Source: an uncultured Chloroflexia bacterium (GTDB taxonomy: Bacteria > Chloroflexota > Limnocylindria > Limnocylindrales > CSP1-4). From it: a stretch of 64,000 nt of DNA. The stretch spans positions 416,001-480,000 of the forward strand of contig CAVVJT010000004.1 in NCBI GenBank assembly GCA_963748625.1. The letters run 5' to 3'. Positions within the stretch are counted from its first letter, which is position 1. Each line of letters opens with the position of its first letter. A program made the translations under genes and the position numbers. Positions 53,946 through 59,672 of the stretch are shown one piece after another. The notes under the pieces were generated by a model that was not told the origin of the DNA, did no database searches, and saw nothing but the letters and a program-made list of their open reading frames with translations.

Positions 53946-54020
53946 TGGCGCGTGGCCTAATGGTATGGCACCTGACTCTGGATCAGGGGGTTCTAGGTTC
54001 AAATCCTAGCGCGCCAGCCA
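53946..54020 (+). tRNA. tRNA-Gln (anticodon CTG)
   Basis: TGGCGCG/CGCGCCA acceptor stem, CCTGA-CTCTGGA-TCAGG anticodon arm, CTAGG-TTCAAAT-CCTAG T arm, G73 plus CCA; TACACT -10 box at 53928. Confidence 0.97.
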
Positions 54021-55956: not shown

Positions 55957-57483
55957 CTACCGCAGGAACAGGTCGTAGGCCGCGCTGCCGTCCTCGGCGG
56001 CCCAGGGCAGCCCGAGCGAGTCGATGAAGGCGCGGAAGTCGCCCATCTCGGCCTCCGGGACCTCGAAGCCGGCCAGCACACGCCCGAAGTCCGCCCCGTG
56101 GTTGCGGTAGTGGAAGAGGGAGATGTTCCAGCGCCCGGCGAGCGCGTCGAGGAACCCCATCAAGGCCCCCGGGCGCTCCGGGAACTCCACGCGCAGCACC
56201 CGTTCGTCGCGGACAGCCGCCGAGCGTCCGCCCACCATGTGGCGCACGTGGACCTTCGCCGTATCGTCGCTTGAGAGGTCGGTGACGGCCAGGCCAGCCG
56301 CGCGGAGCCGCGAGACCAGGTCGGTCGCGTCGGCCTGGTCGCGCACGGCCACGCCGGCGAACACGTGGGCTGCCGCCCGATCCGCGAGGCGGTAGTTGAA
56401 CTCGGTGATGACGCGCCCATCGCCGAGCAGGGAGCAGAACTCGCGGAACGCGCCCGGCCGCTCGGGGATCGTGGCCGCCAGCAGCGCCTCGCGGTGCTCG
56501 CCCAGGGCCGCCCGCTCCACGATGAAGCCAAGCCGGTCGAAGTCGATGTTCGCGCCCGAGAGCACCGCAGCCAGGCGCAGGCCCTGCCGGCCGCTCTCGG
56601 CCGCCCACCGCCGCAGGCCAGCGACCGCCAGCGCGCCTGCCGGCTCCACCACCGCACGGGTGTCCTCAAAGACCTCCTTGGTGGCAGCGGCGATCTCGTC
56701 GTTGGTGACCCGGACCACGCCCGCGCAGTGGCGGCGGGCGATCTCGAAGGGCAGCGCACCCACCTGGGCAACAGCCACGCCATCGGCGAAGATGCCCACC
56801 GTCGGCAGGACGACCCGCTCCCCCGCCTCGAGGCTTCGCGCCATCGAGTCGGCGTCGTCGGGCTCCACCCCGATCACCAGCACCGACGGCCGGACCGCGG
56901 CCACGTACGCGGCGATCCCCGCGAGCAGCCCGCCACCGCCCACGGGCACGAAGATCGCGTCCACATCGCCCAGCGCGTGGTGGAGGATCTCGGGCGCGAC
57001 GGTCCCGGCCCCCGCGATCACATCGGGGTCGTCGAACGGGTGGATGAAGACCCGCCCGGTCTCGGCGGCCAGTGCATCGGCCCGGTCCTTGGCATCGGCG
57101 AAGACAATCCCGGCGAGCACGATCTCGGCACCCAGGTCGCGCACCGCATCCACCTTGATGGCCGGGGTGGTCGCCGGCATCACGATGACCGCACTGATGC
57201 CCAGCTCGCGGGCAGCCCACGCGACACCCTGCGCGTGGTTGCCGGCCGAGGCAGCGATGACGCCCCGCGCGCGCTCGGCGGCCGACAGGCGCGCGATCCG
57301 GTTGTAGGCACCCCGGAGCTTGAAGGAGTGGACGGGCGAGAGGTCTTCACGCTTGAGCAGCACGTGGCAACCGAGGCGTGCGGACAGGCGCCGGGCGGAC
57401 TCGAGCGGGGTCTCGCGGGCGGCGGCTGGAACGCGCGCCTCGAGGATCGCGCGGAGCAGATTGTCCAGGCTGGGGTCGGGCAT
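55957..57483 (-). CDS. ilvA: Threonine ammonia-lyase, biosynthetic
   Basis: KREDL..HSFKLRGAYN, ASAGNHAQG, VGGGGL, SGAN, and two regulatory domains (ITEFNYR, NISLFHYRNHG). Confidence 0.95.
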   Translation of the reverse strand: MPDPSLDNLLRAILEARVPAAARETPLESARRLSARLGCHVLLKREDLSPVHSFKLRGAYNRIARLSAAERARGVIAASAGNHAQGVAWAARELGISAVIVMPATTPAIKVDAVRDLGAEIVLAGIVFADAKDRADALAAETGRVFIHPFDDPDVIAGAGTVAPEILHHALGDVDAIFVPVGGGGLLAGIAAYVAAVRPSVLVIGVEPDDADSMARSLEAGERVVLPTVGIFADGVAVAQVGALPFEIARRHCAGVVRVTNDEIAAATKEVFEDTRAVVEPAGALAVAGLRRWAAESGRQGLRLAAVLSGANIDFDRLGFIVERAALGEHREALLAATIPERPGAFREFCSLLGDGRVITEFNYRLADRAAAHVFAGVAVRDQADATDLVSRLRAAGLAVTDLSSDDTAKVHVRHMVGGRSAAVRDERVLRVEFPERPGALMGFLDALAGRWNISLFHYRNHGADFGRVLAGFEVPEAEMGDFRAFIDSLGLPWAAEDGSAAYDLFLR

Positions 57484-57492
57484 GGGTGGACG

Positions 57493-57774
57493 CTACGCCT
57501 GCCGGCGGATCGCGCTCCAGATGACCCAGGCGCCGGCCACGATGCCCCCGATGTTGAGCGCCTGGCCGGCTGGCCCACTGAGCAGCGACGTGTCCGCGCC
57601 CGCCGGCGCCGTCGCCTGCGCGACCAGCAGGAACAGCGACACCAGGAGGATCACGATCCCGGCGACAAGGCGCTGCCAGTCCAGGCGCGCGGGCTTTGGC
57701 TCAGCATCCGCGGCAGGCGCCGGCTTGGACTCGTCCGGCTTCGGCTTGTCGGTCTGCTCATTTCGGTCGGGCAT
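57493..57774 (-). CDS. Small 2-TM membrane protein
   Basis: MPDRNEQ... with two hydrophobic helices; TAGGCT -10 box just upstream. Confidence 0.65.
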   Translation of the reverse strand: MPDRNEQTDKPKPDESKPAPAADAEPKPARLDWQRLVAGIVILLVSLFLLVAQATAPAGADTSLLSGPAGQALNIGGIVAGAWVIWSAIRRQA

Positions 57775-57840
57775 GGCTGCAAGCCTACCCGACACTGGTG
57801 GGCCGGTCGTCCGCGCGCGGTATGATCGGCCGCAGGTCGC

Positions 57841-57912
57841 TGATGCGTGGCTCACGGTGAGCGTCCGGCGCTGAGCCGGAAGGTGCGGGTTCGACTCCCG
57901 GAGCGTCAGCCA
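57841..57912 (+). ncRNA. Degenerate tRNA-Gln(CTG)-like cloverleaf in the glnS leader
   Basis: TGATGCG/AGCGTCA acceptor stem, GCTC-ACGGT-GAGC D arm, TCCGG-CGCTGAG-CCGGA anticodon arm, GCGGG-TTCGACT-CCCGG T arm, G plus CCA; TATGAT -10 box at 57821. Confidence 0.8.
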
Positions 57913-57986
57913 ACTCCCCTGGGAGTGTGGTGCGCCGGTCCGCGAGTCACCTCTCCTCCCCGTGCACGCAGGTCGAAGGAGACGCG

Positions 57987-59672
<1,686 letters not shown>

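Follow-up and report, generated by a model that had tools for sequence, protein, structure and literature searches.

What function is served by the 75 nt separating the encoded CCA of a tRNA-Gln-like element from the start codon of glnS, the gene for glutaminyl-tRNA synthetase (GlnRS), is the question raised by this locus of an uncultured Chloroflexia bacterium, which was analysed within a stretch of 64,000 nucleotides (hereafter, the window). Regulation of GlnRS is poorly understood and, to our knowledge, RNA control elements have been defined for very few synthetase genes apart from the T-box and thrS cases. An earlier sequence-only reading of the locus had proposed mutually exclusive helices that couple the state of the tRNA-like cloverleaf to accessibility of the Shine-Dalgarno sequence (SD). 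All motifs on which this proposal was built are found in the sequence (Table 1). From the comparison with relatives described below, the 75-nt segment is conserved and probably represents a cis-acting mRNA leader.

Organization of the locus and distribution of the leader

The gene downstream of the leader encodes a complete GlnRS according to Pfam (tRNA-synt_1c with an E-value of 3.4e-102 plus both C-terminal domains) and, among the matches listed, its best named relative belongs to an uncultured Chloroflexia MAG (79% identity). Upstream of the tRNA-like element, a threonine dehydratase gene is encoded on the other strand. A divergent 93-codon ORF (57493-57774, minus strand) starts 66 nt from the tRNA-like element and shows a proline/lysine-rich start and two hydrophobic stretches.

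Table 1. Features of the tRNA-like element, the leader and glnS, with positions in the window.
Feature	Position	Strand	Basis or remark
-10-like hexamer TATGAT	57821..57826	+	15-20 nt 5' of position 1 of the tRNA-like element
Degenerate tRNA-Gln(CUG) copy ("mimic")	57841..57912	+	ARAGORN; cloverleaf, G33, encoded CCA
ACTCCC in the T arm of the mimic	57894..57899		Motif of the sequence-only reading
5' module	57909..57931	+	RNAalifold consensus
5' module helix, GCCA with UGGU	57909..57912 with 57928..57931	+	Predicted pairing
5' module hairpin, ACUCC / loop CCUG / GGAGU	57913..57917 / loop / 57922..57926	+	Bulged G at 57927; ACTCC is a motif of the sequence-only reading
GGGAG	57921..57925		Motif of the sequence-only reading
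Invariant GUGUGGUGC	57925..57933	+	Present in 62/62 leaders
GGTG	57929..57932		Motif of the sequence-only reading
Middle GC-rich segment	57932..57951	+	Fold in most relatives; degraded in the window
CACC	57948..57951		Motif of the sequence-only reading
Anti-SD UCUCCU, 5' strand of the sequestering helix	57952..57957	+	Conservation and covariation
CTCCC	57956..57960		Motif of the sequence-only reading
Shine-Dalgarno AGGAGA, 3' strand of the sequestering helix	57977..57982	+	6 contiguous pairs with the anti-SD
glnS start codon ATG	57987..57989		ORF list
glnS (glutaminyl-tRNA synthetase, 561 aa)	57987..59672	+	ORF; Pfam tRNA-synt_1c

A DNA search of the window's genus gave matches in 50 of 70 genomes, and extraction of the leader from these loci, with GCCA and the start codon as boundaries, resulted in 43 distinct leaders (alignment A1). 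A covariance model made from A1 was used for wider searches, and inclusion of 19 loci from 12 further genera led to alignment A2 with 63 rows, 62 of them distinct. Hence, the leader is represented by 62 distinct versions from 13 genera, all belonging to one family. In every row of A2, it begins directly 3' of the GCCA of the tRNA-Gln-derived element and ends at the start codon, which is in frame with glnS in 44 loci of the genus as established by tblastn.

With the covariance model, exactly one copy was detected in the window's genome, and the genomes with a match have one match each. In samples of 151 genomes each, the leader was found by the model in 19 genomes of the order sample (18/108 in the window's family and 0/42 in its sister family), in 21 genomes of the family sample, representing 12 of 49 genera, and in 10 genomes of the class sample, every one of the latter in the window's family (9/44) and none among 106 genomes of four other families; about 300 genomes of the family were sampled in all. 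Likewise, eight distant glnS loci checked with the model (L089-L095 and L110, taken from at least 80 distant loci) do not show the leader. No Rfam family matches it, and the whole region gives only a weak tRNA match; an 8.8-bit lncRNA match obtained with the bare leader is on the opposite strand and was rejected as spurious. A literature search did not find any paper on a tRNA-Gln–glnS leader. The leader thus appears to be restricted to one family, is not matched in Rfam and, as far as the literature search goes, has not been described previously.

In several relatives, glnS is present without the leader (for example, L013-L016 and L018), and the latter is considered dispensable because it has been lost from these glnS-bearing genomes. 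At L016 of genome G005, a normal tRNA-Gln(CUG) is followed by 39 nt and then by glnS, with neither the conserved leader nor an obvious SD; adjacency of tRNA and glnS can therefore persist after leader loss. Two glnS-leader loci on different contigs were observed in G008 (L004 and L020) as well as in G014 (L012 and L021), which may be due to duplication or to mixed bins, at a contamination of 3-5%.

The tRNA-like element itself is a degenerate tRNA copy. With 29.2 bits at a threshold of 29, it is the lowest of the genome's 49 Rfam tRNA matches, the next scoring 50.8 bits, and a normal tRNA-Gln(CUG) with 67.5 bits is encoded 3.9 kb upstream of it (53946-54020). Besides G33, this mimic shows a position 32 able to pair with position 38 and a short D loop. 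The sequence-only reading had tied the expression platform to the mimic, a connection that does not hold among the relatives: in 30 of the 63 rows of A2, the same leader follows a normal 75-nt tRNA-Gln(CUG) with U33, in 28 rows a degenerate one with G33, and in five rows no tRNA is detected by ARAGORN, of which one ends at a contig end and four, with a half-tRNA remnant beside the leader, have the 5' half replaced. In these four loci (L021, L051, L056 and L087), tRNA-Gln is reduced to its 3' half, which begins with the anticodon loop and adjoins the leader, and unrelated sequence takes the place of the 5' half, a pattern that would be expected if an integrative element had inserted into the tRNA gene.

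Other genera contributed 19 rows, 17 of them with a normal tRNA; the exceptions are the half remnant L087 and L088, the latter combining a normal tRNA with an incomplete leader match. A normal tRNA thus accompanies the leader in 30/63 rows, including every one of the 17 intact rows outside the window's genus, which makes the leader older than the mimic and the mimic a derived state within the window's genus. Throughout 25 distinct mimics, the cloverleaf is kept, with compensatory changes in 7 of 20 pairs, and the anticodon CUG, the pair U1-A72 and G73 are invariant (25/25). Judged from these substitutions, the mimic is a maintained, non-decoding element that has lost U33 and retained a compensated cloverleaf. 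The locus accordingly illustrates a natural route from a real tRNA gene to a structured non-decoding leader element, in which cloverleaf, anticodon CUG and the identity bases of the acceptor are retained, yet G33 is found.

The six bases preceding tRNA position 1 read GGUCGC in nearly all rows (57835-57840 in the window), before normal tRNAs and mimics alike, and adjoin the -10-like hexamer upstream. Pairing of this GGUCGC with a GCGAC preceding the anti-SD was considered by eye and dismissed, as variants on one side are uncompensated on the other.

A hexamer of the type TAnnnT starts 17-21 nt 5' of tRNA position 1 in 52 of the 58 rows with a recognisable 5' end, and TATGAT likely represents the promoter of the tRNA(-like)–glnS transcript. 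A consensus scan of 57400-58200 did not detect a full -35/-10 promoter and returned 0 promoter-like and 0 terminator-like sites. The arrangement expected of a tRNA-mRNA co-transcript, i.e., both elements on the same strand, a promoter upstream and a clean spacer, can thus be read from the sequence, and co-transcription of the tRNA(-like) element with glnS is the simplest reading because of the -10-like hexamer and a spacer free of promoter- or terminator-like sites. Two RNA-library contigs from two studies (57850-57999 and 57888-58058) run from the tRNA-like element across the leader into the start of glnS, albeit at a shallow depth of 2-4.6 that may be due to carried-over DNA and cannot prove a single RNA. 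Four RNA runs were covered, each through a small share in the form of contigs, and coverage of the glnS coding part in them comes from many organisms. These contigs are taken as a weak hint at co-transcription.

The 5' module and the helix at the Shine-Dalgarno sequence

Capture of the G-rich strand by ACTCC immediately after the CCA, one of the pairings put forward in the sequence-only reading, is recovered as a hairpin in 61-62 of the 62 leaders. The 5' strand ACUCC is present in 61 and the 3' strand GGAGU in 57 leaders, and the five leaders lacking exact GGAGU possess a one-base variant that still pairs. In the RNAalifold consensus, the hairpin is lengthened by pairing of GCCA with UGGU across one bulged G; UGGU is complementary to GCCA in 62/62 leaders, with a U·G at the discriminator. 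Over the 5' module, 99.8% of cells are paired in the 62 leaders and 8 of the 9 pairs never vary, so that covariation cannot confirm the 5' hairpin. Beside the invariant stem, 30 different sequences are found between ACUCC and the first GG of GGAGU. The module excluding this loop shows a mean pairwise identity of 98.3% and the loop one of 50%, compared to 87.1% at codon positions 1+2 of glnS and 67.9% at position 3. Also GUGGUGC following the hairpin is almost invariant. These values indicate that the 5' module is constrained in sequence, beyond the mere need for pairing. For the window alone, 25 of 2000 shuffles formed a perfect hairpin of 5 bp starting directly after the CCA.

The predicted GCCA:UGGU helix is of mechanistic interest because pairing of RCCA hampers RNase P. 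According to PMC9433436, RNase P pairs with the tRNA 3' RCCA via L15, and its active complex is formed more slowly when RCCA is sequestered by base pairing, which thus acts as an anti-determinant. Common to the situation described there and to the leader is a 3' RCCA in a helix extending from the acceptor end, whereas the partner of RCCA is the 5' leader in that paper and, by prediction, UGGU of the 3' trailer here.

Coding functions of the conserved sequence were considered and rejected. GUG at 57927, as start of an upstream ORF or of an N-terminal GlnRS extension, is in frame in the window, but frames are inconsistent across relatives: ORFs from the three conserved GUGs are found in all three frames relative to glnS, with scattered stops. 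Comparison of these frames also did not reveal a conserved short ORF, as a leader-peptide attenuator would have. The leader sequence UGGUGCG (57928-57934) is similar to UGGCGCG of the 5' acceptor strand in tRNA-Gln, so that pairing with the opposite (3') acceptor strand is conceivable. A genuine acceptor-strand copy is, however, not supported: full pairing of a 7-mer is seen in 172 (L009), 104 (L005) and 55 (window) of 3000 shuffles, and the window pairs only 6 of 7 bases, which in single sequences is not beyond chance.

In line with another claim of the sequence-only reading, pairing of the pyrimidine tract TCTCCT with the SD is kept in 62 leaders with compensatory changes. In A2, the anti-SD:SD helix corresponds to columns 47-55 with 81-89, where 86% of cells are paired and double-sided changes occur at three pairs; the result with A1 is alike. 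The structure tested, consisting of this helix and the 5' hairpin, has four double-sided pairs, and its covariation score was reached by 0 of 500 shuffles. When one strand is slid as a control, pairing falls to 35-56%. An alignment-free test gave a mean energy of -12.6 kcal/mol for the duplex of anti-SD and SD from the same leader versus -11.7 kcal/mol with mixed partners; the value of the own partners was reached by 0/5000 permutations and, when calculated on 43 distinct combinations, by 3/5000. The longest contiguous helix comprises 4-9 bp in 62/62 leaders (6 bp in the window) and usually runs on through a mismatch into CGC/GCG pairs flanking the SD. Variants of the helix include CUCCA/UGGAG, GCGCCUC/GAGGCGC and CGACUCCU/AGGAGUCG. 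An upstream anti-SD kept by compensatory change, the general mark of SD-sequestering leaders, is therefore present at this locus. By this comparative evidence, the upstream pyrimidine tract would close the SD. Of the four pairings proposed, this helix and the hairpin after the CCA go beyond chance, and the former alone shows compensatory changes across relatives.

Ensemble predictions for the 43 leaders of the genus gave a median P(SD unpaired) of 0.04 and a mean opening cost of 5.8 kcal/mol. The window is a weak example of SD closure, as the opening cost of its SD is 1.9 kcal/mol at a P(SD unpaired) of 0.52; the helix of 6 bp closes a 19-nt loop and is absent from the MFE structure. Considering the window alone, when the upstream leader is dinucleotide-shuffled 2000 times, a 6-mer anti-SD within 45 nt of the SD arises in 54 cases and a 5-mer in 545. 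Overall folding stability is not distinctive either. Folding of 57833-58000, which the sequence-only reading had suggested as a check, turned out no better than shuffles (z = +0.59, with 143/200 shuffles folding at least as well), and 61 leaders compared with their shuffles gave a median z of -0.23, with 2/61 below -2.

Between the two conserved parts, the middle segment forms in most relatives either a CGCG-loop-CGCG hairpin or a pairing of GCGC following UGGU with CGCG preceding the anti-SD. It folds at -3 kcal/mol or better in 50 of 62 leaders and at -2.8 kcal/mol in the window, where it is degraded and its 3' strand reads CAC. A long-range middle helix (columns 27-32 with 44-48) is paired in 98% of cells and has one covarying pair, found in two related sequences; with its 3' strand, it reaches into the lower part of the SD-sequestering helix.

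Proposed function and competing readings

With slightly better than even confidence, we regard the conserved segment as the translation-limiting leader of a tRNA-Gln–glnS co-transcript. It would be transcribed together with the upstream tRNA-Gln(CUG), degenerate in the window's genome, from a promoter just before the tRNA. In its 3' half, the SD and the adjoining downstream bases would be held in a hairpin by the pyrimidine tract and the sequence flanking the latter, limiting translation initiation of glnS, which would otherwise be riding on a tRNA promoter. The 5' half would fold into the hairpin starting at the first base after the CCA, followed by the invariant GUGGUGC, and could lengthen into a helix with the tRNA's own GCCA. 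Most likely, this 5' module would mark and protect the 5' end that processing leaves on the glnS mRNA and would influence end-processing of the tRNA. A purely constitutive brake, however, does not account for 21 nt of invariant sequence in the 5' module.

This invariance bears on the model of the sequence-only reading in its general form, i.e., a multi-state switch coupling leader states to the SD, which we consider somewhat unlikely. In such a switch, region 1 (ACUCC) would hold region 2 (GGGAG), and region 3 (anti-SD) would shut the SD, until removal or occupation of region 1 lets region 2 take region 3 and frees the SD; tRNA 3' processing, RNase P or GlnRS on the cloverleaf, or unpairing of GCCA could act as triggers. 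Processing of the tRNA and structure of the leader could indeed be coupled, as pairing of RCCA is a known RNase P anti-determinant (PMC9433436). Moreover, a first hairpin with invariant stem and variable loop is expected if its strand serves two partners, and the four segments are complementary in the pattern needed, the G-rich strand matching the pyrimidine tract (GGGAG:CUCCC) in 92-95% of cells in both registers. While the complementarity claimed for these two strands is thus found, it does not bear the signature of a selected helix: neither register shows a double-sided change in A2, both are equalled by 401-500 of 500 shuffles, and a shift by three columns gives even better pairing (97%); A1 was tested in the same way. 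Furthermore, cognate partners are no better than non-cognate ones (4301/5000 permutations). This complementarity comes automatically, since segments 1 and 3 are anti-SD-like and segments 2 and 4 are SD-like. The covariation in homologs that had been named as a check is hence seen for anti-SD:SD, whereas the alternative helices show 0 compensatory changes. When the ACUCC strand is removed in silico, the mean opening cost decreases from 5.8 to 4.5 kcal/mol and four leaders turn to an SD-open MFE structure (L007, L009, L053 and L060), as the switch would demand, but the SD is still mostly paired, with a median P(SD unpaired) of 0.14. These energies speak neither for nor against a switch under kinetic control. 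The further pairings invoked are likewise not shared. Capture by ACTCCC of the T arm is ruled out as a conserved feature, ACUCC being present there in 17/62 leaders and in 0/30 normal tRNAs, and GGUG:CACC is limited to the window and one close relative (2/62). Finally, the leader persists also beside half-tRNA remnants.

Other readings place the GCCA end or the synthetase at the centre. A T-box-like sensor without Stem I, in which UGGU binds the free GCCA of uncharged tRNA-Gln, possibly of a tRNA just cut from the same transcript, would stabilise an antisequestrator, in which GGGAG pairs with CUCCY on either side of the middle hairpin, and turn translation on. The T-box antiterminator is laid out as a helix, a UGGN bulge, a small hairpin and a return strand overlapping the sequestrator, an order matched by the possible ON fold of the leader with its UGGU, which is invariant in 62/62 leaders and complementary to GCCA with a U·G at the discriminator, and the genome itself uses T-boxes. 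Nevertheless, we judge this sensor to be very unlikely, and at most a functional analogy rather than family membership, as the Rfam T-box model matches neither the leader (57905-57995, E up to 10) nor its surroundings (57300-58300, E up to 1), Stem I or a specifier would find no space in a 75-nt leader starting at the base after the CCA with the tRNA(-like) gene upstream, the canonical GGGUGGNACCGCGG of the genome's own T-boxes is missing from the leader, the bulge would be about 13 nt instead of 7, and the antisequestrator is without covariation; with G73 in all linked tRNAs, covariation of UGGN with the discriminator is impossible here. Still less probable, indeed highly improbable in our estimate, is a synthetase feedback as in E. 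coli thrS, with GlnRS binding the co-transcribed tRNA-Gln or mimic and thereby altering its own translation. The bases and the compensated cloverleaf kept by the 25 distinct mimics, together with loss of U33 and a position 32 that can pair with 38, point to selection for recognition rather than decoding. However, direct competition with the ribosome by the thrS mechanism is impossible because the tRNA(-like) element ends 65 nt before the SD, and the same leader is associated with an ordinary tRNA that processing would release. A minimal tRNA-end sensor built around the leader's own co-transcribed tRNA, in which UGGU would read the GCCA as joined, freshly cut and free, or aminoacylated and relay this via competing helices, is regarded as unlikely. 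If true, it would follow a T-box-like logic with Stem I replaced by physical linkage to the tRNA gene, and the window's lineage would keep a non-decoding mimic solely as part of a regulator.

The translation-limiting leader favoured here offers, as a short (about 85 nt) and mutable piece of RNA before a GlnRS gene, a concrete object for tests, in particular of whether tRNA processing or 3'-end status is wired directly to translation of the synthetase. It represents a family-wide invariant module that extends from the base after the CCA to a covariation-supported SD helix in front of the cognate synthetase gene.

Comparison with known systems

Translational T-box riboswitches, such as actinobacterial ileS leaders (RF00230), are one of the closest known counterparts. 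Like these, the element described here is the leader of a synthetase gene, its SD would be closed by a sequestrator overlapping an alternative upstream fold, and it contains a UGGN-type tetranucleotide complementary to the NCCA end of tRNA. In contrast to T-boxes, it has neither Stem I nor specifier, lacks the T-box consensus and a model score, and its alternative fold is without covariation; the place of Stem I is taken by the cognate tRNA gene, covalently joined to the leader. Elsewhere in the window's genome (G000), the T-box model gives six partial matches. Those at C10:740024-740346(-), C6:98322-98630(+), C3:57644-57878(+) and C4:205000-205106(-) are below the Rfam cut-off; three of these four contain the canonical T-box sequence GGGUGGNACCGCGG, and two are followed by a U-rich terminator-like tail.

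In the E. coli thrS operator, a tRNA-like structure mediates translational autoregulation, and the bound synthetase excludes the ribosome. Both systems have a structure resembling the cognate tRNA in the 5' part of a synthetase mRNA, and control is expected at initiation. Different from thrS, the element comprises a whole cloverleaf here and in most relatives is a real tRNA gene. Moreover, it does not adjoin the SD (57912 is the last position of the tRNA-like element and 57977 the first of the SD), and an RNA hairpin, not the enzyme, would occlude the latter. In the E. coli thrU-tyrU-glyT-thrT-tufB operon, tRNA genes and a translation-factor gene are transcribed from one promoter, and the mRNA is separated by nucleases. 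A promoter shared by tRNA gene(s) and a protein gene is likewise proposed for the locus studied here, whereas the partner gene encodes the tRNA's own synthetase and the spacer is a strongly conserved, structured leader from the base after the CCA onwards.
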